64,000 bases of DNA from a phage. Location: NCBI GenBank assembly GCA_012813795.1, contig GCA_012813795.1_4087.1; one strand, given 5' to 3'. Each line of letters begins with the position of its first letter. The first letter of the stretch is position 1. Positions 29,889 through 50,438 of the stretch are shown here, one piece after another. The position numbers and the translations under genes were made by a program. The notes beneath the pieces were generated by a model. The model searched no databases. It saw only the letters and a list, made by a program, of their open reading frames with translations, and had not been told where the DNA came from.

Positions 29889-29972
29889 TGTAACTCTCCA
29901 TGTAATGACCAATAGGCACAATCCGTGTGCCATCGCTAATATTATAGCACTAAAATCAGCTTTGTCCCACCT

Positions 29973-29980
29973 ATAAATAC
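29973..29980 (+). promoter_or_regulatory. T4-type late promoter TATAAATA for the baseplate operon
   Basis: exact TATAAATA about 33 nt upstream of the ATG at 30013. Confidence 0.45.
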
Positions 29981-31069: not shown

Positions 31070-33220
31070 ATGGATACTAAAATTGGACTAGACCCTAGTC
31101 AGAGTAACAAATATGGTGCTAAAGTAAGTAATGTACAATCAAAACCAATCCAAAGCACACATACTGATAGAATTTATGACGATAAAAAGATTTCTGATTT
31201 TATTATTGACAATGAAAATGTTTTATTAAAATACAATTCAGCAACGTGGCACTTTACCTTGTTTGCCTTAGATAAAGATGACTTTAAGATGTTCTGGGAA
31301 AATCCAGATGCTGAAGTCCAACGTTATGTAATCACTGAAAGTGGCGTTACTGGTAAGTATAATATCACAAATGTTCAGATGACGCAAGCTGGACCGTCAA
31401 CACCTGGTATGACAACTAACTATACATTTAATACTGCTTCAATAAGTATGTCAGAAAACAATAGTATGAGTTTTTATGATGAGTTGATATCATTAAGTAA
31501 TAAACTTCGTTATCATAAATTTATGGATTTACCATTAATACTTGAACTCAAGTTTATTGGATACAATGAAGATGGCGTGCCACAAGTTATACCAAATACA
31601 ACAAAACGTTGGTCTGTTAAGATTAATAACGTTAAAGCAAGTGCTAGTGCAACTGGTAGTACAATGTTATATACCATTAACTTAGTACACAATCGTGCCG
31701 CTTTAGTCGATAACATTGAATGGACATTAAAAGAAACATTCTCATGCACTGCTGCACAATTTGGTACATTTTGTTATGACTTAGAAGATAAGTTAAATGA
31801 AATGTCAGAACAACAGTATGGTTATTTGTGTATGAAATTTCCAGAACTTGCAGATGGTAAATTTTTTGAATTTAAAGTTGCACCTGAACTAGCTGATATG
31901 TTCATAAACTATGATTCTAAACAAATGACTGAAGTAACTTCAACAAAAAATGGTTCACAGGGTTCTAAAAACTTTTCATGGAATCCAAGTACACCAATAT
32001 CAAGAATAATTGATGATGTTATCGATGCATGTACCGTTCGTGAAGGTGACAGTACTAGCGTTCGTCAATTTGTTAATATAATCCCACTTAAACAATATGT
32101 TGGTTTTGATAATTTACGTAACACATCAGTATATAAAGTTATTTTTAATATTGTTCGTTTTCGTATTGGTGATGTTGTCCATGAATCCGATTTACAGCCA
32201 GAAAACTTTAACTTCGAGACATTCCTAGAAAACTCTGAACGTTATCTTGACCCTAGAGATAATGAAGAAAAGTTAAGAATGAAAATATACAATTATCAAT
32301 TCAGTGGATTGAATAATGAAATATTAGATTTGGATATGAATTTCGACCAACAATTTTATGTAGCTACTACACGTAACCCAGGCCCAATACAAGACCAAGG
32401 TAACAGAAGTGGTACACATGCATCACAAGAATTGACCATACAAGGGGTTCAATATAGTAACCCGTTGGATGCTTGGAATAAAACTAGTGATATAAGAAAA
32501 GCACGAAGTAAAGGTGAAATTATAACACAAGCCCAAACAGCTTTACTTAATGAAATAGATGAGCAATTAAAAAATGCAATGGGTGTGGGTAATCAAGCAG
32601 AACAAGATGCTTATATGAATTATAAAGTTCATGTCCTTCCTGAATACATTGAAGATTATCGTAGTGTATATGAAGAAAATGATATGGGTGCTGATGGTAT
32701 TGGCGACCGTAGAGGTGAAATATTCACTATACCAACTGAAGCAACAAATAACCATACAACCTTATCAGCATCTGATAACGATAATAGCAGTACATATGAA
32801 ATGGACAGACGTAAAATACGCGACAACTATTATAACCGTCCATTTATGTGTAAGTTGGATATGCGTGTTATTGGTGACCCATATTGGTTGGGATGGGGTG
32901 ATCATGCATATCTTCAATATTTGGATATGTTGGTGAATGGTGAAGCATTATATATAAATCCAGAGGATTTCAAATATGCAAATTATATTTCAACCGAAGC
33001 ATATTTGTTATTGAAATTGCAACCTGTAGTTTCAATTAATGATAATACTGGTATTTTGGATATAACCACACCAACTACATTCAACGAAACAATCTATCGC
33101 GTAAACAAAATAATTCATGATTTTGGTACAAACGGCACTTTCACACAACAAATTCAAGGTGCTATTGTCGCTCGTGCACTTAAACGTAAAGATAGTATAA
33201 TAAACCCAGGTGGTGAGTAA
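31070..33220 (+). CDS. putative baseplate hub protein (gp27-like by position)
   Basis: large ORF immediately upstream of the gp5-like spike, overlapping TAATG junction. Confidence 0.35.
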   Translation: MDTKIGLDPSQSNKYGAKVSNVQSKPIQSTHTDRIYDDKKISDFIIDNENVLLKYNSATWHFTLFALDKDDFKMFWENPDAEVQRYVITESGVTGKYNITNVQMTQAGPSTPGMTTNYTFNTASISMSENNSMSFYDELISLSNKLRYHKFMDLPLILELKFIGYNEDGVPQVIPNTTKRWSVKINNVKASASATGSTMLYTINLVHNRAALVDNIEWTLKETFSCTAAQFGTFCYDLEDKLNEMSEQQYGYLCMKFPELADGKFFEFKVAPELADMFINYDSKQMTEVTSTKNGSQGSKNFSWNPSTPISRIIDDVIDACTVREGDSTSVRQFVNIIPLKQYVGFDNLRNTSVYKVIFNIVRFRIGDVVHESDLQPENFNFETFLENSERYLDPRDNEEKLRMKIYNYQFSGLNNEILDLDMNFDQQFYVATTRNPGPIQDQGNRSGTHASQELTIQGVQYSNPLDAWNKTSDIRKARSKGEIITQAQTALLNEIDEQLKNAMGVGNQAEQDAYMNYKVHVLPEYIEDYRSVYEENDMGADGIGDRRGEIFTIPTEATNNHTTLSASDNDNSSTYEMDRRKIRDNYYNRPFMCKLDMRVIGDPYWLGWGDHAYLQYLDMLVNGEALYINPEDFKYANYISTEAYLLLKLQPVVSINDNTGILDITTPTTFNETIYRVNKIIHDFGTNGTFTQQIQGAIVARALKRKDSIINPGGE

Positions 33221-35883
33221 TGGCAGATACAAGTAAAAAGTTTGCAAAGGAACAGTTGGGTCGTTTTGACCCATCTTATCCACAATTAGCAACCGTTATG
33301 GATAACCGAGATCCTACGAAATCTGGTAAGCTAAAAGTATGGATACAAGGTTCACAAAGTGATAAAAACTCTAAAGATTCATGGATTGAAGCTTCATATA
33401 TGGCCCCGTTTGCTGGTAAAACCCCAGGAATACCAAGTGCAGATAGTTATGGACAGTATCCAAAAGGTTATGGTTTTTGGGCCGTACCACCAGATGTGGG
33501 ATGTACAGTTGTTGTTATTTTTGCACAAGCACGTACATTCCAAGCTTACTGGATTGGGTGTGTTTATGACCAGCGTATGAATACGATGGTTCCTGGTATG
33601 GCAACTGCTGATACAAATTACAATGGCACAGATATGCCATTACCAGTAACTGACTATGATCGTAACACAATCACAACTGACATGCAAGACAAATATATTA
33701 ACGTTCCTGCTGTTGAAGGATTGAAAAAACAAAACTTATTATACGATGATGAAGCAGGTGTTGCAAACCGCAGCAGTACTCGTCAAACAACCAGTACTGT
33801 ATATGGTATGAGTACACCTCGTGGTAATAGTTTTATTCTTGATGATGGATATACAGAAGAAGAATTGACCAAGCCAACATGGGATCAAGACCCTGATGGA
33901 TACCAAGACACACAATTTAACAACCCAGTTAATGACACTCGTGTTGGTTCCCGAAAGAATGAAGGTATTGTTATTAAAACACGTAGTGGTGCACAACTTC
34001 TTATTTCTGAAACCACTGGTAATGTTTTATTAATTAACCGTGATGGTACGGCTCGTATTAAATTCACTGGCGATGGTGATATTGAAATGCACTGTGATAA
34101 AAACATAAACATTCGTGCAGGTCAAGATATTAACATGGTTGCAGGTCGTTCTTATAATATTGAAAGTGGGCAAGACTTCAATACTCGTGTTGGTGGAAAT
34201 ACCAAACTGGAATTGGTCGGTAATTTGGATGCTAAGGTCAATGGTCAGGTTGTAATTAATTCTGGTGCTGATCTTCGTTTGGTTACTGGTGCTTCATTAC
34301 GTCTTCAAAGTGGTAGCAGTACTGATATTACGGCTGGCTCAACAGCATCTGTTAAAGGTTCATCCTCTGCAAACGTTATTGGTGGCTCATCCGTTAACAT
34401 TAGTGGTGGTGGTCAAAACCTAACAGTTGATAGTGCTGGTAACAGTGGTAGTGCTGCATTCATGGCTCCTGATTTTAAAACACCATCAGTGGGTCTTAAT
34501 GATCACATTCATATGATTGCTAACTGGAAAGATGCAGAAAACCACGGTGATAGAGTTGATCCTGGTATAAGTGGTGGTGGTCAAGGTAGTACAACATCTC
34601 CAGTTGAGCCACAACCAGCAAATGATGTTCAACCTACACTTGCAGAGCAACAAGAAACAGACGCAATTCAATTTGTAAATTATGCCCCAGAGACAAGTGA
34701 AGTTCAAACACAAGATTTAATGGCGGCTGAACCAGGAATGACTGGTTATTCGCAGACATTTGAAGGTTTGCATATGCTTATGCCATGTAGCGGTACTATT
34801 CGCCAGAATGGTTATTGGGGTAAGGGTGTAACGACCGAGAATGGAACCAAGCGTGATAGTAGTGGATGGGAAATTCAAGCCCGTGGAAGTGTGGTTGCAC
34901 CAGATGGTGGGATTGTTGGTATCAGTGGTGATGCTCTTATTATTGAACATAAATCTGGTTATAAATCTGTTTTCTATGGTTTAACTTCTGACCTATTCAA
35001 TAAAGATGTTGTTGAAAAAGGACAAGTAATAGGAACTGCTAATGGTATATTACGATTTGAAATAAGAGTTCGCTCATCTAATATCTATGGTTTTAGTGGT
35101 TCAGTTGATCCTGGATTATTCTACACAACTGTAACTGGTCAGGGTTCTGCTGCGGCGAACAAAACATTAATTGGTGGTCAACCATCAACACAAAATAACC
35201 CTAAAGATGTGGTAAGACCATCTGCTGATAGTGATGAATTAGTAATATCAACTCGAATCCGAACAATTGGAACTGGATATTCACAACGTGGTTCACGACA
35301 TGTTCCGCGTCGTAGGGAACGTAAACCTCGAAATGCAGGAACTGCACCAAAAGCAGAACAAAATTATAACGTAGGTAATGTTGATAAAACAGCAGTTGGG
35401 TGGAAAGTTGCCCCAGGTGATTCACAGTTTGTATCTGAACTTAAAGAACATGAAGGTACGATCCAATATCAAACTGCACTTGGATATTTCAGAAATGGAA
35501 AATTCTGGCGTTATATTGATAGTCGTGGTTTTCCTACAATTGGATATGGACATCTTATTGATGGTGGTGAAGATTTCTCTGGTGGTATAACTGAAGCAGA
35601 AGCTGATGCAATGCTAGTACGAGACAGTACTCAAGCAATCAATGATGCAAAATCAATATATGCTGCATGGGATTTAAAAACACCAGTTATTGCTCAACAA
35701 GTACTATGTCAAATGGTATTCCAAATGGGCAAATACAAAGTACAAAAATTCAAGGGTATGCTTGGGTGTTTAGCTAAAGGTGATTATCGTGGTGCTGCTG
35801 CTCATATTCGAAGTTCCGCTTGGTATCGTCAAACAACTCGTCGTGCTGAGTTAATGGCACGTAGAATTGAGGCATGTCAATAA
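33220..35883 (+). CDS. 5: baseplate central spike (gp5-like): N-terminal OB region, beta-helix repeats, degenerate LytM-like domain, C-terminal lysozyme
   Basis: KLKVWIQG N-terminus; G-rich repeats; M23-like pattern without catalytic His; C-terminal TIGYGHL...VFQMGK...SAWYRQTTRRAE lysozyme. Confidence 0.75.
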   Translation: MADTSKKFAKEQLGRFDPSYPQLATVMDNRDPTKSGKLKVWIQGSQSDKNSKDSWIEASYMAPFAGKTPGIPSADSYGQYPKGYGFWAVPPDVGCTVVVIFAQARTFQAYWIGCVYDQRMNTMVPGMATADTNYNGTDMPLPVTDYDRNTITTDMQDKYINVPAVEGLKKQNLLYDDEAGVANRSSTRQTTSTVYGMSTPRGNSFILDDGYTEEELTKPTWDQDPDGYQDTQFNNPVNDTRVGSRKNEGIVIKTRSGAQLLISETTGNVLLINRDGTARIKFTGDGDIEMHCDKNINIRAGQDINMVAGRSYNIESGQDFNTRVGGNTKLELVGNLDAKVNGQVVINSGADLRLVTGASLRLQSGSSTDITAGSTASVKGSSSANVIGGSSVNISGGGQNLTVDSAGNSGSAAFMAPDFKTPSVGLNDHIHMIANWKDAENHGDRVDPGISGGGQGSTTSPVEPQPANDVQPTLAEQQETDAIQFVNYAPETSEVQTQDLMAAEPGMTGYSQTFEGLHMLMPCSGTIRQNGYWGKGVTTENGTKRDSSGWEIQARGSVVAPDGGIVGISGDALIIEHKSGYKSVFYGLTSDLFNKDVVEKGQVIGTANGILRFEIRVRSSNIYGFSGSVDPGLFYTTVTGQGSAAANKTLIGGQPSTQNNPKDVVRPSADSDELVISTRIRTIGTGYSQRGSRHVPRRRERKPRNAGTAPKAEQNYNVGNVDKTAVGWKVAPGDSQFVSELKEHEGTIQYQTALGYFRNGKFWRYIDSRGFPTIGYGHLIDGGEDFSGGITEAEADAMLVRDSTQAINDAKSIYAAWDLKTPVIAQQVLCQMVFQMGKYKVQKFKGMLGCLAKGDYRGAAAHIRSSAWYRQTTRRAELMARRIEACQ

Positions 35884-35917
35884 ATATTTTATCCAATAAA
35901 TATTATAGGAGAAGTAT

Positions 35918-36406
35918 ATGAGTAAATGGGAAATTAAACCTGATGATGCACAGTATTTGAAAGAAATTAAAGAGTTTGAAGGTACTATTGCTTTCCAAAC
36001 TAAATTAGGTTATTTCAAGAATGGTAAATTCAGAGTTTATAAAGATAGCCTAGGACTAGATACCATTGGTTACGGTCACTTAGTACTAAAAGGTGAAAAT
36101 TTCAGTGCAGGGCTAACTGAAGCAGAAGCAGAAGCACTACTTCAAAAAGATTCCCTAAATGCATACAGAGAAGCTAACGAGATTTATGATCAATTCGGTA
36201 TGTCTGCACCAATTCAGGTACAACGTGTACTTTGGATGATGATATTCCAAATGGGTAAATCTCGTGTATTGAACTTTAAGAAAGCGATGGCAGCATTGGG
36301 TTGTGGTGATTATAAAACCGCTGGCAAAGAAATGCGTGATTCCGCTTGGTATCGTCAAACAACTTCTCGTGCTGAAAAAATGGCAAGGATTGTTGAATCC
36401 GTATAA
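35918..36406 (+). CDS. e: lysozyme (T4 e-like, GH24)
   Basis: EFEG...YKDSLGLDTIGYGHL...MIFQMGKSRV...SAWYRQTTSRAEKMA aligns to T4 lysozyme. Confidence 0.9.
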   Translation: MSKWEIKPDDAQYLKEIKEFEGTIAFQTKLGYFKNGKFRVYKDSLGLDTIGYGHLVLKGENFSAGLTEAEAEALLQKDSLNAYREANEIYDQFGMSAPIQVQRVLWMMIFQMGKSRVLNFKKAMAALGCGDYKTAGKEMRDSAWYRQTTSRAEKMARIVESV

Positions 36407-36815: not shown

Positions 36816-36822
36816 TTTACTA

Positions 36823-36848
36823 AGCACTCTTCGGAGTGCTTTTCTTTT
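36823..36848 (+). terminator. terminator after gp25 (UUCG tetraloop)
   Basis: AGCACTC-ttcg-GAGTGCT followed by TTTTCTTTT. Confidence 0.7.
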
Positions 36849-36849
36849 G

Positions 36850-36885
36850 GATAAATATTTCTATATAAAATTTCAGTACTGACCC
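36850..36885 (+). promoter_or_regulatory. late-promoter-like GATAAATAT / TATATAAAA followed by TTTCAGTACT upstream of gp6
   Basis: motifs read directly upstream of the gene starting at 36915. Confidence 0.35.
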
Positions 36886-36914
36886 AGTACTTTATTGGCT
36901 TAAAGGATTAATAA

Positions 36915-40426: not shown

Positions 40427-40460
40427 TCAAATGAATGAACGAATTTATGGAGTCCTATAC

Positions 40461-43400
40461 ATGACTAATAATTTTAAGTTTCTACCAACTAAAACGGCAG
40501 AAGCAGTACAACAGAAGCTTTTCATTAAAAGATTACCTGAATGGATGCAAGGCTTAGAAGACATTCAAAAGGTTAGTGATGATGTAATTCAACAATGGTT
40601 CAATCCAGCGGATAATGAAATCGTTGATGGATATATTGGTGATATGGGTTCTCCTGCTGCATCTGCTAAGATTTTCCTTGACGAATCAACCGTTGAACGT
40701 CAGCTATATCAATTATCAACAGCATATGTGTCTCGTAATGATGACACAAGCATTCGTTCGCTTCAATTTTATGATGATTTGGTTGGCTACATGGAACACT
40801 ATGGCACGTTAACTTCAAACGAGAGCCGTCTATTTTCTGGTAAGTTCTATTCTTGGACACCACCAATTAACCCAAACAAAATGACCAACTATAGTTCTTA
40901 TTTGTGGGATAGTAAAAATAGTTTTGGTATCACATCACCTGACTTTATTGTTATGGAACGTGGTGCTGATAACGGTAACACTTGGTCACTACAGAACTTT
41001 TGGTATACTATTGGACAAACCCTAGAAGATGGTACAGTACTAACTGCTGACATGACGCAGGATACTCGTTTTATTCGTGCACAAGCACCAATCATCGAAT
41101 ATAATAAAAACATCGAATTAATCAACTACGGAACAAATTTCCGTGGTATTGTTGACCTATTCTCTGATACAGTTAAACCAGAAGATATCGTTCAAAAGGA
41201 CGTTAACGATGGTATTCGTATCGATGGTATCATTCCACAAGATGGTATGCGTATTCTATTCACCAGTATCGGTAACGTTGGTGAAAACAACCGCATTTAT
41301 AAAGTTTTTATAAAGAAAATGCAAGATGGTTCTCGTACCTATGGTTTGGCACTAGATCCTGACGAGGAATCAGAAGAACGCCCAAGTGGTGAACCCCATA
41401 ACGGTGATGTAATTTTGGTGCGTGATGGTAATGTATATAAAAATACATCCATGTACTGGAATGGTGTTGATTGGGTTAGAGCACAAACCAAATCTGGTAT
41501 CAACGTGTTCCCACAATTCCAATTGTATGACCGTGATGGTTTCAAATTAAACGACACTACTATGTATCCATCAAGTAATTTCGTTGGATCATCACTATTT
41601 GGTTTCAAAATTAACTATAATTATGGCACTGATAAAGTATACGGTTATAATATTGAATTAGGTAATTATAATTACTACATGTACGAAAACTTTCTTCAAA
41701 GTGTTCGTTATACATATGATCATTTGGGTGTTGAAACAGAAATTTCTGGATTATATTACTATAATGTAGTTGGTAAAGATAATGAACTTCACCTTAAGAC
41801 CGATTGGGTTCGCTCAAAGGAAGATTCAAAACAATTTGTTAAACAAACACCACAAATCGAACATACTGATATGTATCGTGTATTCAATACTGTATTTGAA
41901 ATGGAAAACTTCAAAACTCCATTAGAAGGTATGTATGCATATGTCATTGAAGTTGATCGTACCTATCAATATTACAAAGAAGAACGTCAAACCTATATGG
42001 ATTGGCATGTAATTAGTGGTGAAGGTATTCAAAGTGAACGTTTCAATCGCACATTTGAATTAGCCCAGAAAATTATTGATGGTAAGAGTACTGAAATCAT
42101 TGAAATTCAAGTTGATGGTGTGGATGTAACCGATTATACACGTCATGTATATAATAACAAGGTTCAAAGCATCACTTTAGGGGAAGACGTTACTCTTAAA
42201 GATGAATCAGTAATTCAAATTAGAACATATAGCAGTACGGAAGTACCAAATAAAGAGTTGGGTGCATATGAAATCCCAATTAACTTACAAAATAACCCAT
42301 ACAACGATAATATTCTTTATATCAACCAAAGTAATTTTACATTACATTTTAAAGATATCATTCAAAAGAATATTACCAGTGGTTCAGTTGATGATTTCAA
42401 TGACTACGAAGAGCGTTTGTCTAAAGGTTTAGTAGATAACTCTGTAGGTACTAAGATTATCCAAAACGAAGCATCTATGCTACCGTTAATGGCACATTCT
42501 GCAAATGAAGACATTGACCTATTTGAATCTGTATTGTTTATGCAATCAGAGTACTTTCGTTTTGTAAACAAGTTCAATACACAAATGATTCGTTTGTATA
42601 ATGAGAACCCAGCAAACTTCTTAGCTAATAATGCTTCTAATATTGTTGATGAAATTCTAACAATTATTAATATGGGTCATGATAATACATTCCCATTCTA
42701 TTATGACAACGTGGCAAGTACTTCTGGTTTCATTCGTGCTTTTGTACCACCAACTCCACAGTTCTTAGGTATTTTAAAAGCTCACGTTCCAGAAAAAGCA
42801 ACATTTTTGAATGCTGGTAGTAAGCAAAGCTGCTATAACATCAGCCATACTGGTGCAATCACCAAAGCATACCGTGTAATTAACGGTGTTGATAAAATGG
42901 ATGACGTTATATATGAATTAGAAAATCGAATCTTCAATAGTATTGATGTTATTTTCAAAGATGAAGATTACCAACCTAAGCTAGATGCTTCTGACCTTTT
43001 CCCTACTCCGTATTTTAGAGATACAGAGTATAATGATGAAGAGAAGAAGAACTTACTACTACGTGGTTACATTAACTTCATCGCAACCAATGGTATCAGT
43101 AACAGTTCGCATGATTATGATCCAAATAACTGGATGACTTGGAATTATACTGGAACTTATTACATTGTTAATGGTCAACAAACACAAATACCAGCACGTG
43201 GTTCATGGCGAGCAATCTACACTGACCAATTTGGTACATATCGCCCAGCAACCCATCCGTGGGAAATGTTTGGATTCTCCCAACGTCCGGTTTGGTGGAA
43301 CCAAGAGTACGAACCAACAGCAGTTCAAGTTGGTGAACGCGACAGTGATGTTGTTTATGTATATGAGGCATTGGTTCTCAACGAACAAGGTAACATGGTC

Positions 43401-46400
43401 CCTAGTGGGTTGTGGGATGTTGGTAATGAGAAAGGTGATAGCTCAACTGGAACTATCTTATTTGGTGCACGTAAAGGCCAATATGACAAGTATAAACGTT
43501 TTGGTACACAACCATTCAAGATCACCAAAACAGGCAAGCAGACTGCTTCTGGTGTTGATATTTGCGTTATTGAGTACATTGCACCTGAAGTATTAGGTCT
43601 TGTTTATGGTAGTTTGAATCATCGTGCTGAACCTTGGACCTATGGTGACATGGGTGACATGGAATTCACATACATGAACACCTCAATGTTCGCATATGAT
43701 GAATTAATGTTGTTATTCAAAGCTAAACCTGCACAATTCACCAACTATTTCTGGAATACTCGAAATAATACATTAAAAACTGTATCTGGTAACGAACCAC
43801 AGTTTTTATATGGTGATACTCGTTTACGTTTGAACTTTAACAGTGATACAATAGTACATGGTGAGAATAGCACTCGTGTTATTGGTTATCAAATGATTGT
43901 TAGTAACTATTTGATGTATCAAAACAAAAACATCACTACTAAGTACGGTGAAGTTGTTCGTTCTTCTCATATTAATGTTGGTCATAAACTAGGTGGATTC
44001 ACTAAAGCTGACCAATTAACATTTACGTCAGAAGCAACTGGTCTAATTTCACAAGAAAACCAATCTATCGGGTTAGTTCGTTCTAATAATATTAGAAATG
44101 AGCAAATGAGTGCAATTAAAATTACTTGGACTGGTAGTGCTTACCAAATTGATGGTTATGATTTAGTTTCTGCAACATTCAATTATAAATTGCCTGTTAA
44201 AAACGGTCATAAAGTAACTTTGAAAGTTGATAATCGTAATGTTGTTCATTATAATGAGTGGAAAAATGATGCATCAATCCCTTACGGAACTTTGATGAAT
44301 ACATTCCAAGAAGTTTACACATTTATTTGTGGTTATGGTGAGTATCTCAAACAACATGGTTGGATTTTTGAAGAAGTTGATGAATCTGGTATCCAACAGG
44401 ACTGGAATACAATTGCAAAAGACTTTTTAATCTGGAGTCAACAACAATTGAGTACTGGTGAATTCATTTCATGTACTCCATCTGCAATTAAAGCCAAATT
44501 TGGTACAGATTTTGGTTCAGTACAGTCAATTACACAAAATAGTGGTGGTGTTTGGTCACTATTAGATGATTCAAACCAAGGTATCCGTCAATTTGAGATT
44601 GAAACATCTCGTATTGGTAATATATTCACGGTGAGAACTACTGAAGAATCAAATAAACGCATGGCACTTATTCGTTTAAGTATCAGTTCATATGAACATG
44701 CTGTTATTTTTGATGATCAGACTATTTTCGGTGACTATATCTACGAACCAACCTATGGTGCAGTTCAAGAATTGATTAAATTGTATGGATATATCACTGG
44801 TTCATGGTCTGGTCGCTTACAAGCTCCTGGATTTATCATCCTAGAAGCTGGAACATTACCATCATTTGAAACATTGGTATCAAATTTCCAACAGTATTAT
44901 GATAATGAAACTCCAGTTAGTGATGTTCAATTGAATGAACTATCAAATCACTTAATTGGTTATCAGTCTCGCGATTACTTACAACGTATGATCACCAACG
45001 AGCCTGGTAGAATTGATTTCTATAAAGGTTTCATCCACGATAAAGGTACTAACCAAGTACTAGAAAAAGTACTACGTGTATCTAAATCATATAATACTGA
45101 TGAGTATAAAGCATTACAAGAATGGGCATTCCGAGTTGGTTCTTATGGTAACATTGATGGGGTTAAAAATCTTCAATTTAAACTAATTAATAATGAGTTT
45201 AAACAACAACCACAAATGATTTCGTTTGACCGCTATGCTGATAAGGTAGAGTCAGAGAATGAGATCGTATATTATGGTGAAATTGGTGAAGATTCACGCT
45301 GGATTAGTCGTCCTAAAGGTAAATTCTCATTACCTATGCGTAGTGGAAGAAGTGAGAACATCCAATTACCTAATATTGGCCCAGTAACCTTAGATGAAAT
45401 TGATTATACCACATTGAATTATGAAACGGCTAATCAAGATCGCATTAGTTACACGAATAACTTTGGCAAAATACCAACATCTGTTTGGATGTTCCAAGAT
45501 ATTAATAACGAATGGAATATATATGATTTGGTAGACACTGGTATTACAATGGTTTCCATTACACCAATAGAGAATAGCGACCCATATGCTGAGCAATATT
45601 GTAAAGTACTATTGTCTGATGACATCCCACTAATGGATGGTGATTATTACTATTTCGTTGATGAAACAAACTTTATGCCTGACGCACTACGTGAAGAAGG
45701 TCAATATTACACTTCTGGACTAAATCCAAAAGTTATGGTTGTGCCATTTGACACTTCTATCACTATTGACTTCTCAACTGTAGAATCAGCACCACGTTTG
45801 TATCGTTATGTTAGTAGATTCAGCACTCAACAAGAACGTGATGATTATATTGCTAAAAAATACAGTTACAGTGCACCTGAAAGTACTTTGTTTGACCGTC
45901 CTACTACGTATGATGAAAGAACAAACATCACTGCATTGTATTTGAATGTGTTTGACCCAATCAATGGTGTTATTCCTGGTGTAGCAATGCAAGATGTTGA
46001 TTTCATCTCCCCTGTTGATCCAGCACAATATAGCAGTAATGGTGAACTATTACAAGCATGGGGTGCTGAAAAGGTAGGTAAGGTATGGTGGAACACTAGT
46101 ACTGCATTCTATCTGGATTATACCCGTCCAATCTTTGATGAGGATGGAAACGTTGATGTAAAAGCAACTAATGAATATAAGCGTTATAATTGGGGTAAAT
46201 TATTACCACACAGTGTTATTGATGTTCTAGAATGGGTTAGTTCACCAGTAGAACCATACAACTGGGAAAAATATTGTGCAGAACAAGCCAATAAAAATAA
46301 AAACAACACCATGTATCTCCCAAGTGGGGTTGCGATGGATGATAACTATAGTTCATCTATGGAATATGATCCAATCACCGATACATATGTAGTTCGTTAT

Positions 46401-49400
46401 TATTTCTGGGTTCGTAATACAATTTATGTTCCACCAATGACTACTCGTAGTAAGTCTTGTACTGATATTGCACGTATTATTCAAGATCCAACACAATTGA
46501 ATGTTCCTTGGTTTGCACCTATTAACGAAAATAGTTTCATTCTAAGTAATATGCAATTTGAAGTTAATGATGATACAAGCATTTTGACAATTTCATATAG
46601 AAATGACAATATTGAAGTCCTGAAGCATGACCAATATCAACTTTGTAAAGAAGGTGATAGTTATGACTTTAACCCAGATATTTGGAATTCTCTATGGAAC
46701 TCACTAATTGGTCAAGAAACTACTTCAACTGGTGTTGTAAATGAAATAGTTTATCCTAAAGTTGAAACTGGTTTGGGTTCTAATAAAACTTGGTTCCAGA
46801 ATGTTATTGAAGCTCGTCGTGCGTTTGTTGAGAGTGCTAATAACTTTTACCGTTCACATAACATCACAACTAACAGTGTTGTTATGAATGATGTCTTTAA
46901 TGTTAAAACATTAAAAATGAACCCGAATGATATTACATTCCGTGTTCTATCATTTAACAATGAATTGGTAATTGCACCAGAAGACAACCGCTTCAAAGAG
47001 AATGATGCAGTATTTGTAAGTTCCATTGGAACATTACCAGCACCATTATCTTCAAGTTCTGTATATTTTGTTCACATTGATCCAAATGGATACATTCAAT
47101 TGATGAACAGTCCAAGCACAGTTGGTAGTACTGTCACAATCACTCTAGAAAATAGAGGCGAAGGTCAACACAAGATGATTAAACAAGCTGACTTCATTGA
47201 ATCACTTGGTACATCGTTGGATATGACACAGTACTGGAATCTAGCTGATTGGTACGATACTGGATACGATAGTAACACTGAATATACACAAGAAGTTAGT
47301 TTAGATGACGCAAACACTAAAAATTACCAAATTGGTGATATTATCCGTGTAACTGATAGTGATGGCGTTTGGACATTATACATCAAGACTGCATCTCGCA
47401 ATAATGTATACTGGAGAGCTATTGGACGTGAGAATAGTACTGTTGAATTGAATTCAATGTTATATTCTAGTTACAATGTTTATAATGATGATGGTTCTTT
47501 GAATTCTCATGAGGTTAACGTTCGTAATGCGTTAGCGTTGTTGAAAAATTCATTCGATTTATATCAAAGTAATATTGTATTTGATATGGTTAAGTACGTG
47601 CACACTGAACAAAGTGTTGTTGATTGGGTATTCAAAACCTCCTATATCTATATCGTAGGTTTGGAGCAATCACTAGTACAGAACTACTCAAATGACAACT
47701 TGATTAATCAAATTGTTGAGTACTTCGAGGAAGTTAAACCATACAGAACCAAAATCCGTTCTCAAATCGAACAGAAAACTTCTGATGATGATTTGATTAA
47801 TGGTATTAGTAATGACCTTGACCCAGATGGCTATATTTTAGTTGATGGTGTGTGGGTTAAGACTGAAAAAGACATTTGGGATTTAGAATATGCACAATTC
47901 AATGATGTAACTCAACGTTGGGAAAAGATTGGTTCACTACCAAGTGACTTTATCACACCTAATAGACGATTCCAAGAAATAGACGTTATTATGCATTATG
48001 ATAATATTCAATGTGAACAGTATGATAGTAATTATACAATTGATGAGTTGAAATCAACCAATAGTAAGTATCAATCCAACGAGGCTGATGTAGGTAATAA
48101 TTATGAATTACAGAGATATGTTTATACATTCCCTGAATATGATAATAATACCTTAATTTCACAAATTGGTATTGAAATGACTACCAAATATTCAGATTTG
48201 GATATTAGTAATGGTGTTATTAAAGGAATTGATGCATGGTATAAAGCACATTCAACTGATATCGCATCAACTGACCAATTTACTACTGATTTGGAGCAGG
48301 TAACTGCTGATACAAACAATAGTAATATTTTAGAAGATGTTAAAAAATATATTCAATATAATACATTAGCAACTCGTGTGAAAATGTTTAATAATATATC
48401 TGATGATATGGTTTCTAATGAGATTGGTTGTCCGTTTAAGGGTACAAACTATAATGATAATCCTAATACTCGCCTCCCATTCGGGTTTAGTGCAAGTAGT
48501 GATTATAACTATGGTTATTTTGAGATTAGTATTGAACTATATGAAAAATATGTCGATATGATCAAGAAAAATCACCCAGAGTTTACAAACGAAGACCAAA
48601 TTCGTAACATTCTTGAAATAGAATATGGTGTTTATTGCTACAAGTATGATACCACATTAAATGACCGTTATTATTCTGATACCGTTCATGTTTTATCTGC
48701 TATGCGACAAACATTTAATAAGAATATTCTAGATCATTATTATGTTGCTAGAGAAATCTTAAGTAATCGTTCAGTTGAGAAGTATGCTTTTGTTATGATG
48801 CCAAGAAAGTATGTGTATGTTGTGAATGCGGCGGGTGAATATCTACCGATTCCTGAAAGTTACAGCATATCTGATTTCATGGAAGACTTGTTCATAACAA
48901 CCGGAGAATCAGTTGTATTGGCTGAAATTGATTTAAATGATTTACCACAAGACCAGAATAATCCTATGTATTCTGCATACATTGAAGTACTGGAAAGTAT
49001 TAATACCGCGAAATATTTCAATGATATGAACGCATTCGATAACTTGGCATTGGAATCACAAACCAAGTCCATTAAATGGGAAGTTAAAGATAGTGAGATT
49101 GATCCTTATATCATCGACATTTCTGAACTAAACCCATCAGGAAGAACAATGGCACAATTGCGTTTCACTGTTGATGGTTATGGTTTCGATGAAGTTGCTC
49201 AAGAGCAATTAAAAGACACGAGTAGATTCCAAATTGAGGGTATGATCGTACAGAACCCTTACAATATGTCAGAAGCAATTGTAAGTATTCCATCATATGA
49301 TATTGTCATCGAGAATATGGGTAAAGATGTGTTTAAAGATTCAGAAAAATACTTCTTCCCAATTTCAGAAATTAAAACAATTACTGAAATCAAGGTTCAT

Positions 49401-50438
49401 GATGAAGGATTGAAAAATGGTGATAAGGTTGTGATTTTCACACCAGATGGTGAAGATTATGTACGATTCCAAGATGGTGAATGGGTAACTATACTAAGTG
49501 CTAGTAAAATCCAAACCTCCAAAAAACCAAAACTGTACACTGTGCGTGTATTGGGTAACGGAAACGTTGAGTTGGTTGATGGTAACGGTGTTGCATTGAT
49601 GTTTGATAGTGTAACTAAGCGTGAAAGTAATGAGCGTTTTTATACATTATCAATGAACTTAGTTAGAATCCGCACTTTCCAAGACCCTGAGTTTGATGAC
49701 AATGGCCTTAAACTATATGAAAATAATCGTCATTATAGTATACATGCATTGAACTATGAAGTATTCTATGACGAAACATTATATGGTGGTAAATTCAATG
49801 ATGGTATCACATCTGATGAGATTGATTTGTGGTTAGTTTCCAATGAGATTTTTGAAGTTGATGGTATTACAATTGATAATGGTTATAATCAACCAATCAC
49901 TGGTAAAGGTGTTCTAGGTGAACTAGTACGAGCTAAAATGACTGATGGTATTGAAATCACTGTATTTGAATACGATGTTGATGTTATTCAACCAGTACTA
50001 AGTTATGATCGCGTGTGGCAGTATGCACAACCAGTGGTCAATAACACGTTCATCAAAGAGGTAGGATGTAATGTTATTAACATTACAACTGTTGAAGATG
50101 AGGCAATCACTTATGTTGCTAAACCTCGTTCAATAAGCCCATATATCATTACTGATTCAGTACTGTCAGGTGCTGCGGCACAGAATGATGATATTATTGT
50201 GGTTGGATATGAGAAGGTTCAGGTAAGAAATACTGATCGTCTATTACGTGGTGTCATGTATAGTGCGGAGCATAATTTCACAAAAGGAACTTCTTATAGC
50301 TTCAATGGATTGAACTTAGGAAGCATTGATAAGTTTACTCAATATCAAAACTTCTATCCACCAATTCCATTAGAGACATTCAGAAATGGATTGTCAATTA
50401 CTGGAACCGATATCGAAAAACTTTTGAATATTCAATAA
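40461..50438 (+). CDS. giant virion structural protein (about 3325 aa) at the gp7 position
   Basis: single uninterrupted frame; GGAG RBS before the ATG at 40461 (first in-frame ATG at 40431 lacks an RBS); terminators on both sides. Confidence 0.8.
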   Translation: MTNNFKFLPTKTAEAVQQKLFIKRLPEWMQGLEDIQKVSDDVIQQWFNPADNEIVDGYIGDMGSPAASAKIFLDESTVERQLYQLSTAYVSRNDDTSIRSLQFYDDLVGYMEHYGTLTSNESRLFSGKFYSWTPPINPNKMTNYSSYLWDSKNSFGITSPDFIVMERGADNGNTWSLQNFWYTIGQTLEDGTVLTADMTQDTRFIRAQAPIIEYNKNIELINYGTNFRGIVDLFSDTVKPEDIVQKDVNDGIRIDGIIPQDGMRILFTSIGNVGENNRIYKVFIKKMQDGSRTYGLALDPDEESEERPSGEPHNGDVILVRDGNVYKNTSMYWNGVDWVRAQTKSGINVFPQFQLYDRDGFKLNDTTMYPSSNFVGSSLFGFKINYNYGTDKVYGYNIELGNYNYYMYENFLQSVRYTYDHLGVETEISGLYYYNVVGKDNELHLKTDWVRSKEDSKQFVKQTPQIEHTDMYRVFNTVFEMENFKTPLEGMYAYVIEVDRTYQYYKEERQTYMDWHVISGEGIQSERFNRTFELAQKIIDGKSTEIIEIQVDGVDVTDYTRHVYNNKVQSITLGEDVTLKDESVIQIRTYSSTEVPNKELGAYEIPINLQNNPYNDNILYINQSNFTLHFKDIIQKNITSGSVDDFNDYEERLSKGLVDNSVGTKIIQNEASMLPLMAHSANEDIDLFESVLFMQSEYFRFVNKFNTQMIRLYNENPANFLANNASNIVDEILTIINMGHDNTFPFYYDNVASTSGFIRAFVPPTPQFLGILKAHVPEKATFLNAGSKQSCYNISHTGAITKAYRVINGVDKMDDVIYELENRIFNSIDVIFKDEDYQPKLDASDLFPTPYFRDTEYNDEEKKNLLLRGYINFIATNGISNSSHDYDPNNWMTWNYTGTYYIVNGQQTQIPARGSWRAIYTDQFGTYRPATHPWEMFGFSQRPVWWNQEYEPTAVQVGERDSDVVYVYEALVLNEQGNMVPSGLWDVGNEKGDSSTGTILFGARKGQYDKYKRFGTQPFKITKTGKQTASGVDICVIEYIAPEVLGLVYGSLNHRAEPWTYGDMGDMEFTYMNTSMFAYDELMLLFKAKPAQFTNYFWNTRNNTLKTVSGNEPQFLYGDTRLRLNFNSDTIVHGENSTRVIGYQMIVSNYLMYQNKNITTKYGEVVRSSHINVGHKLGGFTKADQLTFTSEATGLISQENQSIGLVRSNNIRNEQMSAIKITWTGSAYQIDGYDLVSATFNYKLPVKNGHKVTLKVDNRNVVHYNEWKNDASIPYGTLMNTFQEVYTFICGYGEYLKQHGWIFEEVDESGIQQDWNTIAKDFLIWSQQQLSTGEFISCTPSAIKAKFGTDFGSVQSITQNSGGVWSLLDDSNQGIRQFEIETSRIGNIFTVRTTEESNKRMALIRLSISSYEHAVIFDDQTIFGDYIYEPTYGAVQELIKLYGYITGSWSGRLQAPGFIILEAGTLPSFETLVSNFQQYYDNETPVSDVQLNELSNHLIGYQSRDYLQRMITNEPGRIDFYKGFIHDKGTNQVLEKVLRVSKSYNTDEYKALQEWAFRVGSYGNIDGVKNLQFKLINNEFKQQPQMISFDRYADKVESENEIVYYGEIGEDSRWISRPKGKFSLPMRSGRSENIQLPNIGPVTLDEIDYTTLNYETANQDRISYTNNFGKIPTSVWMFQDINNEWNIYDLVDTGITMVSITPIENSDPYAEQYCKVLLSDDIPLMDGDYYYFVDETNFMPDALREEGQYYTSGLNPKVMVVPFDTSITIDFSTVESAPRLYRYVSRFSTQQERDDYIAKKYSYSAPESTLFDRPTTYDERTNITALYLNVFDPINGVIPGVAMQDVDFISPVDPAQYSSNGELLQAWGAEKVGKVWWNTSTAFYLDYTRPIFDEDGNVDVKATNEYKRYNWGKLLPHSVIDVLEWVSSPVEPYNWEKYCAEQANKNKNNTMYLPSGVAMDDNYSSSMEYDPITDTYVVRYYFWVRNTIYVPPMTTRSKSCTDIARIIQDPTQLNVPWFAPINENSFILSNMQFEVNDDTSILTISYRNDNIEVLKHDQYQLCKEGDSYDFNPDIWNSLWNSLIGQETTSTGVVNEIVYPKVETGLGSNKTWFQNVIEARRAFVESANNFYRSHNITTNSVVMNDVFNVKTLKMNPNDITFRVLSFNNELVIAPEDNRFKENDAVFVSSIGTLPAPLSSSSVYFVHIDPNGYIQLMNSPSTVGSTVTITLENRGEGQHKMIKQADFIESLGTSLDMTQYWNLADWYDTGYDSNTEYTQEVSLDDANTKNYQIGDIIRVTDSDGVWTLYIKTASRNNVYWRAIGRENSTVELNSMLYSSYNVYNDDGSLNSHEVNVRNALALLKNSFDLYQSNIVFDMVKYVHTEQSVVDWVFKTSYIYIVGLEQSLVQNYSNDNLINQIVEYFEEVKPYRTKIRSQIEQKTSDDDLINGISNDLDPDGYILVDGVWVKTEKDIWDLEYAQFNDVTQRWEKIGSLPSDFITPNRRFQEIDVIMHYDNIQCEQYDSNYTIDELKSTNSKYQSNEADVGNNYELQRYVYTFPEYDNNTLISQIGIEMTTKYSDLDISNGVIKGIDAWYKAHSTDIASTDQFTTDLEQVTADTNNSNILEDVKKYIQYNTLATRVKMFNNISDDMVSNEIGCPFKGTNYNDNPNTRLPFGFSASSDYNYGYFEISIELYEKYVDMIKKNHPEFTNEDQIRNILEIEYGVYCYKYDTTLNDRYYSDTVHVLSAMRQTFNKNILDHYYVAREILSNRSVEKYAFVMMPRKYVYVVNAAGEYLPIPESYSISDFMEDLFITTGESVVLAEIDLNDLPQDQNNPMYSAYIEVLESINTAKYFNDMNAFDNLALESQTKSIKWEVKDSEIDPYIIDISELNPSGRTMAQLRFTVDGYGFDEVAQEQLKDTSRFQIEGMIVQNPYNMSEAIVSIPSYDIVIENMGKDVFKDSEKYFFPISEIKTITEIKVHDEGLKNGDKVVIFTPDGEDYVRFQDGEWVTILSASKIQTSKKPKLYTVRVLGNGNVELVDGNGVALMFDSVTKRESNERFYTLSMNLVRIRTFQDPEFDDNGLKLYENNRHYSIHALNYEVFYDETLYGGKFNDGITSDEIDLWLVSNEIFEVDGITIDNGYNQPITGKGVLGELVRAKMTDGIEITVFEYDVDVIQPVLSYDRVWQYAQPVVNNTFIKEVGCNVINITTVEDEAITYVAKPRSISPYIITDSVLSGAAAQNDDIIVVGYEKVQVRNTDRLLRGVMYSAEHNFTKGTSYSFNGLNLGSIDKFTQYQNFYPPIPLETFRNGLSITGTDIEKLLNIQ

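Follow-up and report, generated by a model that had tools for sequence, protein, structure and literature searches.

A baseplate spike of a RaK2/121Q-like jumbo phage that keeps a dead LytM domain beside its lysozyme, next to an old lysozyme paralogue

What is a peptidase fold without catalytic residues doing in a phage baseplate spike, directly before an apparently intact lysozyme, and how is that lysozyme related to the free lysozyme gene that follows it? The question is raised by a 64,000-nucleotide (nt) stretch of phage DNA (GenBank assembly GCA_012813795.1, contig GCA_012813795.1_4087.1; hereafter the window), whose source is a jumbo myophage of the RaK2/121Q-like type, a giant E. coli phage: positions 33220-36406, which hold the spike and free lysozyme genes, share 96.5% identity with Escherichia phage A4 (ON286972) and ~77% with 33 Asteriusvirus genomes, e.g. 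121Q and PBECO4. We find that the LytM domain of the spike is CATALYTICALLY dead in the whole family, and that it is as constrained as the enzyme domain beside it. Our best explanation of the whole, which we think is probably right, is a trimeric spike in which the dead domain is kept as a non-catalytic partner that regulates or positions the spike lysozyme, the free gene being an old paralogue. The spike and its parts, in window coordinates, are as follows.

33220-35883, + strand: central baseplate spike gene, 887 amino acids (aa), an open-reading frame (ORF) matching PHROG 13211 end-to-end (1675 bits)
33277-33570, + strand: N-terminal OB-fold, residues ~20-117 (PF04717 Phage_base_V, residues 23-116, 29.4 bits against a cut-off of 23.8)
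33805-34449, + strand: beta-helix needle, residues ~196-410 (DUF2345, residues 280-321, 30.3 bits, just below the cut-off of 30.7)
34504-34512, + strand: H429-x-H431 directly after the beta-helix, invariant in 49/49 relatives, a putative Apex-type histidine cage
34513-34761, + strand: acidic low-confidence linker 1, residues 432-514 (predicted local distance difference test, pLDDT, mostly <60; K+R 2 against D+E 13; ratio of non-synonymous to synonymous substitution rates, dN/dS, 0.33)
34762-35169, + strand: catalytically degenerate LytM/M23-fold domain, residues 515-650
35170-35400, + strand: basic linker 2, residues 651-727 (low pLDDT; K+R 14 against D+E 7; dN/dS 0.39)
35401-35880, + strand: C-terminal GH24 (T4-type) lysozyme domain, residues 728-887 (PF00959 Phage_lysozyme, residues 765-882, 34.7 bits against a cut-off of 22.3)

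The 887-aa protein is a gp5/VgrG-type central baseplate spike. A Pfam scan finds four domains in it (Phage_base_V, DUF2345, Peptidase_M23 and Phage_lysozyme), and its N-terminal 477 residues match the VgrG spikes of type VI secretion systems (T6SS) in the PDB over OB-fold and beta-helix alike: the OB-fold, with a dN/dS of 0.018 between the window and 121Q, aligns with the VgrG OB domain of 9jg8/8gra, whilst the needle matches VgrG beta-helices (E-values 1.3e-5 to 1e-2) and also the gp5-like spike 9f4a. The gene is 96.5% identical at the nt level to A4_584 of phage A4 and lies in a baseplate cluster flanked by gp53-, gp25- and gp6-like genes, with conserved synteny. Orthologues of equal length, domain order and gene neighbourhood are RaK2 gp078, 121Q gp587, phAPEC6 gp241 and CBB_240 (57-79% identity), and spike orthologues have been detected in virions by mass spectrometry (PMC7247149, PMC5259590). 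In the full-length AlphaFold (AF2) model, a monomer built on 49 homologues with a predicted template modelling score (pTM) of 0.39, the needle region is beta-rich at moderate confidence, a monomer being unable to show a trimeric helix, and low confidence marks residues 118-195, a linker at ~410-514 and a basic linker at ~651-727. A first-pass annotation of this DNA had placed the spike ORF (33220-35883, 887 aa) and a 162-aa ORF (35918-36406) here, and had described the spike as gp5-like with a domain order unlike that of T4 gp5; both ORFs are present, and Pfam and the AlphaFold model agree that the lysozyme is C-terminal, after the helix.

Directly after the needle, H429-x-H431 would form a metal cage of the Apex type. 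An HxH that follows the beta-helix marks the Fe-binding Apex domain of spikes, where three copies of HxH make up an octahedral Fe site, normally at the very C-terminus; in P2 gpV, for example, the two histidines are H197 and H199 in a chain of 211, which leaves 12 residues after the motif (bioRxiv 10.1101/2023.02.25.529910). A Pfam scan of the HxH region and both linkers finds nothing, no Apex-motif family included. Shorter relatives, e.g. P0090, share the 'APDF..VGLN.HIH.H' context and end soon after HxH; as the motif is internal here, the LytM and lysozyme domains look like cargo added to a pre-existing spike. Spikes of ~490-555 aa without enzymatic cargo (P0089-P0109) carry a conserved C-terminal motif, T(E/H)EP(C/Y)P.HEN, after the beta-helix. 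The linkers have features of their own, an invariant A467/D469 within 'PANDV' in linker 1 and a conserved VPRR stretch in linker 2; they are opposite in charge, acidic and basic, and either might serve docking or processing.

Residues 515-650 have the M23/LytM fold. In the window protein PF01551 (Peptidase_M23) matches residues 555-608 at 21.0 bits in the whole protein and 23.6 bits in the isolated domain, both below the gathering score of 28.7, and 27 of 29 relatives match it singly at E ≤ 0.01 (best 6.4e-11). A single-sequence PDB search with the full spike protein returned no M23 match, a family profile being required: with a profile built on 29 relatives over residues 500-650 the PDB matches are nearly all M23 proteins, LasA first at 9e-7, with SpoIIQ, pseudoalterin, DipM, zoocin A, Csd/Pgp peptidases, ShyA and EnvC as further matches. 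The AlphaFold model of the LytM domain alone has a mean pLDDT of 92.2 (in the full-length model residues 515-650 are compact, at pLDDT 84-92), and its top 50 Foldseek matches are all M23/LytM, headed by the LytM domain of DipM. Searched exhaustively with a profile, 1.8 billion representatives yielded 7 from the family (E ≤ 1e-35) and, after a gap, ~1,670 more matches from 3e-17, and the 10 of these outer matches that were checked are all strong PF01551 proteins. Aligned by hhalign with a single lysostaphin sequence, the family profile gave a partial alignment at 39% probability. The LytM-like domain suspected in the first-pass annotation is thus borne out by the family-profile PDB search, by Foldseek and by the PF01551 matches of the relatives, and a profile search of the central region of the spike does find the M23 fold.

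The catalytic elements of the fold are lost throughout the family. Residues were mapped by co-aligning, in MAFFT, the family, 15 M23 proteins from the library and lysostaphin, whose motifs are H32xxxD36, H82 and H113xH115. Lysostaphin H32 corresponds to S547 of the window protein (in the family R 32, H 5, N 5, Q 3, S 2), D36 to E551 (I 24, E 7, T 5 and others, L and V also), and H82, the catalytic His of YxHL, to G587 (G 25, D 18); the loop bearing H113 is deleted (~10 residues), and H115 falls on R612, a position occupied by 13 different residues in the family. The median domain holds one histidine, the structural H577, which is kept invariant together with W550, F613, E614, R616 and the MPxxG and DPG motifs, largely general M23 scaffold positions that are seen in active enzymes too. 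The absence of the HxxxD and HxH histidines, read from the window protein alone at first, therefore holds (S547...E551, the shortened loop, R612 and G587). Activity as a peptidase through non-canonical residues is very unlikely indeed: His does occupy the first motif position in 5/49 members and Glu replaces the Asp ligand in 7/49, the window protein included, but the complete metal triad is found in 0/49, the YxHL His is Gly or Asp in 43/49, and the HxH loop is ~10 residues shorter and holds no His in any of the 87 LytM domains among the spike relatives, none of which has an HxH motif anywhere.

The dead domain is not decaying and is as constrained as the enzyme domain. Between the window and 121Q dN/dS is 0.17 for LytM and 0.15 for GH24, with 0.12 in the free lysozyme and 0.33-0.39 in the linkers, dS being ~1 and the values approximate; across 49 relatives LytM is on average 56% identical to that of the window protein and GH24 55%, and columns at least 90% conserved make up 21% and 22%. 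Among 120 spike relatives LytM and GH24 occur together in 87, always in the same order, LytM alone in none, a C-terminal GH24 alone in 6 and neither in 27. Other relatives of the OB-plus-helix core carry a C-terminal GH24 alone, a GH19 or an M15 peptidase, and this swapping of C-terminal cargo shows a modular lineage, like that of the 'evolved' VgrGs. A LytM fold without metal ligands, a mark of LytM factors, is found here by Foldseek and residue mapping. Several of the nearest outside sequence relatives share the HxH-loop deletion, and these relatives have their best scores with the EnvC, NlpD, ActS and DipM models, below the curated cut-offs. The spike domain resembles LytM factors but cannot be filed in any named family.

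What might such a domain do beside a lysozyme? Tail-associated lysins must stay harmless during assembly and act only at puncture, and to our knowledge their control is known for very few phages, essentially for T4 gp5. The role we favour, though only tentatively, is that the LytM domain regulates the muramidase, together with positioning it, because a lysozyme on a tail has to be controlled and cannot, in this domain order, be controlled as in T4, and because the nearest structures are protein-binding regulators, with PrgK and DipM as precedents. DipM and EnvC bind and control autolysins. In PrgK a degenerate LytM domain restrains the fused muramidase of a DNA-transfer (conjugation) machine (PMC11323569), and DipM, through its LytM domain, interacts with lytic transglycosylases (PMC10336132).

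The same constraint would also fit a putative peptidoglycan-binding module which, having kept the groove and lost the chemistry, anchors the lysozyme to peptide stems at the puncture site without any regulation. With high confidence the domain keeps the M23 fold and the scaffold of its groove, it is always paired with the lysozyme, and the third GH24 paralogue of the lineage (see below) has a LysM wall-binding module, so that GH24 enzymes of this lineage are combined with binding modules elsewhere. However, the groove-lining catalytic positions vary across the family, which is unexpected for a conserved ligand site, and the best structural neighbours, EnvC and DipM, are protein-binding regulators rather than known wall-binding domains; we regard pure targeting as possible but rather doubtful. 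A purely architectural domain is less likely again. This would be a packing or trimerisation module folding back along the needle, or a plug, which holds the lysozyme during assembly without touching peptidoglycan or enzyme. The flexible linkers of ~70-80 residues that flank LytM would allow it to fold back along a needle of roughly 120 Å, the invariant PANDV of linker 1 might dock there, and the conserved LytM residues are mostly fold scaffold; but retention of an M23 fold and conservation at the level of an enzyme would be left unexplained, and related spikes with a C-terminal GH24, GH19 or M15 manage without LytM.

Several observations also weigh against regulation or positioning of the lysozyme by LytM. 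Six related spikes have the C-terminal GH24 and no LytM, so the lysozyme does not need it, and the co-occurrence of the two domains may reflect just one ancestral fusion. The invariant residues, being mostly M23 scaffold positions, point to no specific binding site. The monomeric AF2 model (pTM 0.39) is silent on inter-domain and trimer contacts, and the contact between LytM and lysozyme is putative. An NCBIfam search with the LytM domain gave no match at E ≤ 0.05, and so no named activator family, and the domain is accompanied by neither the coiled-coil nor the LysM modules seen in EnvC and NlpD. The role of HxH as the tip is uncertain as well, since 456 residues follow it before the C-terminus, unlike in known Apex domains.

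The enzyme beside LytM has a close neighbour, which lies 34 nt downstream.

35918-36406, + strand: free GH24 lysozyme, 162 aa (PF00959, 35.2 bits against a cut-off of 22.3), a paralogue of the spike C-terminal domain

Judged by its sequence, the spike lysozyme is intact and competent: it matches gp5 and T4 lysozymes in the PDB, is modelled at pLDDT 83-90, and across the family keeps the catalytic Glu745 (48/49), Asp767 (48/49) and Thr773 (35/49). Both lysozymes keep the residues that align with T4 lysozyme E11, D20 and T26. The first-pass annotation had read the two as near-duplicates that arose by recent duplication, or by domain exchange between lysis and virion enzymes, and this part of it fails. 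Spike residues 728-885 and the free lysozyme are 53% identical as proteins, over 158 residues without gaps; aligned as DNA they are 61.6% identical, with 51% at third codon positions, dN 0.45 and a saturated dS of ~1.1, which is no recent copy. In a custom neighbour-joining bootstrap tree of seven phages (the window, A4, 121Q, RaK2, GAP32, XbC2 and Munch) the spike-borne copies group together (bootstrap 0.77) and the free copies likewise (0.82), and within each of the seven genomes the two lysozymes are 40-64% identical. Escherichia phage CMSTMSU, whose record is unverified and fragmented, was left out of the analysis. The duplication therefore predates the split of Asteriusvirus, Alcyoneusvirus, Mimasvirus and the Munch-like phages, and a 'recent' duplication is refuted by the saturated dS and the separate clades across genera.

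What could still be said for a recent duplicate or exchange is that the two genes are neighbours, that their products have in common a 13-residue insertion between Glu and Asp which T4 lysozyme lacks, that free copies nest with weak support inside the spike GH24 clade of an expanded tree (deep nodes 0.14-0.58), and that 25 nt match exactly between 35814-35838 and 36340-36364 (the codons for SAWYRQTT, synonymous sites included), an identity limited to the window/A4 lineage and not found in 121Q or RaK2. The SAWYRQTT stretch may hint, at most, at gene conversion over a very short tract, or be chance on a conserved motif, and against the divergence and the tree a recent origin is highly improbable. 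An older order of events is suggested by the same data. The most divergent LytM-bearing spikes, P0080 and P0087 (35-37% identical; loci L011 and L010), have gp25 directly 3' and no free lysozyme, whilst P0078 (43% identical) has one, so the free copy looks like a later addition within the family. The nesting suggests that it arose by tandem duplication of the spike C-terminal domain, and this origin is only suggested because the deep nodes of the expanded tree are weak.

Does the free gene code for the lysis enzyme? We doubt it, since a third GH24, one with a membrane anchor, is present in relatives. The free lysozyme sequence has no signal, membrane segment or hydrophobic N-terminus, and it is encoded within the baseplate operon, with the spike gene on one side and gp25 on the other. 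LysUE1, the orthologue from UE-S1, shows muralytic activity in vitro (PMC12805682), and the CBB paper puts forward a different protein as endolysin (PMC5259590). The 121Q homologue of that protein, gp532 (L009 16192-17118, outside the window), combines a hydrophobic anchor at its N-terminus with a LysM motif and with a GH24 domain, which is 34% identical to the free lysozyme with an insertion of like type, and is the candidate for the true endolysin. An Rz-like spanin, gp511, lies ~9 kb upstream of it in 121Q. By sequence, then, RaK2/121Q-like phages carry three GH24 paralogues, and with three copies an endolysin assignment from annotation alone is unsafe.

Where the free lysozyme goes bears on whether LytM might act in trans, either by switching on autolysins of the host (amidases of the AmiA/B/C type or lytic transglycosylases) where the phage enters, or by binding the free 162-aa lysozyme and bringing extra copies of it along in the virion. 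This is quite unlikely. The phAPEC6 virion proteome contained the spike orthologue gp241 and not the free lysozyme (PMC7247149), and only the hub and gp25 homologues of RaK2-like phages are confirmed as structural (PMC5259590); moreover P0080 and P0087 keep LytM without an adjacent free lysozyme, the domain has no sequence-level membership in the EnvC, NlpD or ActS families, and the cis lysozyme already supplies wall cleavage. It is likewise improbable that the domain mimics host EnvC/NlpD-type activators in the periplasm and switches on host amidases or transglycosylases, or an inhibited phage lysozyme, tethered or free. If it did, the phage would breach the wall by taking over the logic with which the host controls its autolysins, and not by enzyme dose alone.

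Returning to the dead domain as a partner of the spike lysozyme, the particle might work as follows. The OB-fold would dock the trimeric spike to the baseplate hub, the beta-helix would form the needle, closed by the conserved HxH, and the cargo would hang beyond it on flexible linkers, the LytM/M23-fold domain first and the GH24 lysozyme after it. On sheath contraction the spike would drive this cargo through the outer membrane to the periplasm, where the lysozyme would clear a path for the tube by cutting glycan strands. The dead LytM domain would be a maintained non-catalytic partner of the lysozyme, holding the muramidase in check or positioning it on the wall, and the adjacent 162-aa gene would be an old paralogue co-located in the late baseplate operon.

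The gene neighbourhood of the spike is that of a baseplate cluster. On the + strand the order is a 252-aa structural protein, a gp53-like protein, the 716-aa structural protein, the 887-aa spike, the 162-aa lysozyme, a gp25-like protein, a gp6-like wedge protein and a 3335-aa structural protein, and the identical order is annotated in A4, 121Q, GAP32, XbC2 and Munch. RaK2 keeps it with four small ORFs between hub and lysozyme (L003 1891-3384), and gene order around the spike is kept in metagenomic relatives too. In 121Q an HNH homing endonuclease (L002 9670-10434) lies between the gp25-like and gp6-like genes, which is not there in the window (36816-36914). The insertions in 121Q and RaK2 indicate that the cluster tolerates extra genes at gene junctions. 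The 3335-aa protein is a single ORF at 40431-50438, directly after the gp6-like wedge gene; no domain is assigned to it, and its orthologue is phAPEC6 gp245, a 381.88-kDa virion protein. Neighbouring features are given below.

29972-29979, + strand: TATAAATA, T4-type late-promoter consensus just 5' of the first baseplate-cluster gene (consensus match only)
31070-33220, + strand: upstream 716-aa virion structural protein (PHROG 11190), whose stop overlaps the spike start codon
36420-36815, + strand: gp25-like baseplate wedge protein (PF04965, 36.6 bits), with gene order kept in RaK2, GAP32, XbC2, Munch and metagenomic relatives
36822-36841, + strand: first terminator-like hairpin 3' of the spike, after gp25 (consensus match only)

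The 716-aa protein is a possible hub partner of the spike, its position being that expected for a gp27-like hub protein; it has no Pfam match and no PDB sequence match, and its orthologue, phAPEC6 gp240, is present in virions (PMC7247149). Genome-wide counts of TATAAATA are not above chance. Two copies of AATAAATA, one mismatch from this consensus, lie at 35879-35886 and 35895-35902 in the 34-nt gap between the spike and free lysozyme genes, the first overlapping the spike stop codon. No terminator-like hairpin was found between the spike, free lysozyme and gp25 genes, and a scan for sigma-70 promoters stayed at the level of chance, with 53 hits where 50 were expected.

Most of this picture has been reported before. 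The RaK2 paper (2013) described gp078 as an unusually large baseplate lysozyme of 'very unusual domain composition', comprising a beta-helix, two unassigned regions and a lysozyme at the C-terminus, and noted the likeness among RaK2's three lysozymes (PMC3622015), whilst the CBB paper (2017) gave a weak central M23 match (E 6.5e-4) in CBB_240 and its homologues (PMC5259590). In the searchable literature we found no report of firm proof of the M23 fold or of the family-wide loss of every catalytic element, and none of the LytM constraint, the strict GH24 coupling, the regulator-like structural neighbours or the internal HxH. The spikes of this clade, found in jumbo phages of Escherichia, Klebsiella, Salmonella, Erwinia, Cronobacter, Yersinia and Xanthomonas, are without the T4 arrangement and keep a dead LytM beside the lysozyme under selection as strong as that on the enzyme. 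If LytM does regulate or target the muramidase, the 'LytM factor' principle would extend from bacterial division and conjugation to phage entry, and would offer a simple, testable module for engineering controlled lysins. It also matters that the two lysozymes are corrected to old paralogues.

Compared with known systems, the nearest phage counterpart is T4 gp5, which like the window spike combines an OB-fold, a beta-helix needle and a GH24 lysozyme in a baseplate setting beside gp25, gp6 and gp53 homologues, and T4, like the window phage, has a paralogous soluble lysozyme, T4 gp5 and T4 lysozyme being ~43% identical. The order differs: T4 gp5 runs OB-fold, lysozyme, helix, whereas the window spike runs OB-fold, helix, HxH, LytM, lysozyme, and T4 gp5, without LytM and HxH, has the PAAR protein gp5.4 as its cap. 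Control of the T4 lysozyme is attributed, in a passage of PMC7318152 that cites Kanamaru 2005, to its beta-helix and linker context. That control is not available in the domain order of the window spike. In the placement of its cargo the spike is closer to the 'evolved' T6SS VgrGs, V. cholerae VgrG-3 and P. aeruginosa VgrG2b, where cargo is likewise fused after the beta-helix, and VgrGs are the best PDB sequence matches of its N-terminal half; unlike them it is a phage virion protein without a gp27-like N-terminal module, and its cargo would attack the host wall to let the genome in and not serve as a toxin.

The LytM domain itself is like those of EnvC, NlpD, ActS and DipM, its best structural matches, in having the fold without the catalytic metal ligands, and unlike these bacterial LytM factors in being fused to a spike; the likeness is structural, and activation of a hydrolase is putative. 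PrgK, of the pCF10 type IV secretion system, differs in belonging to Gram-positive conjugation, in its membrane anchor, in a muramidase of SLT fold instead of GH24 and in an extra CHAP domain, and has no sequence-level relationship to the window spike beyond the shared fold. The M23 domains of phi29 gp13 and Tuc2009 Tal2009 are unlike the window domain, being active endopeptidases of phages with Gram-positive hosts, outside contractile-tail spikes. The spike is therefore best placed as a variation on tail-associated lysins, evolved spikes and LytM factors, and not as a new category.

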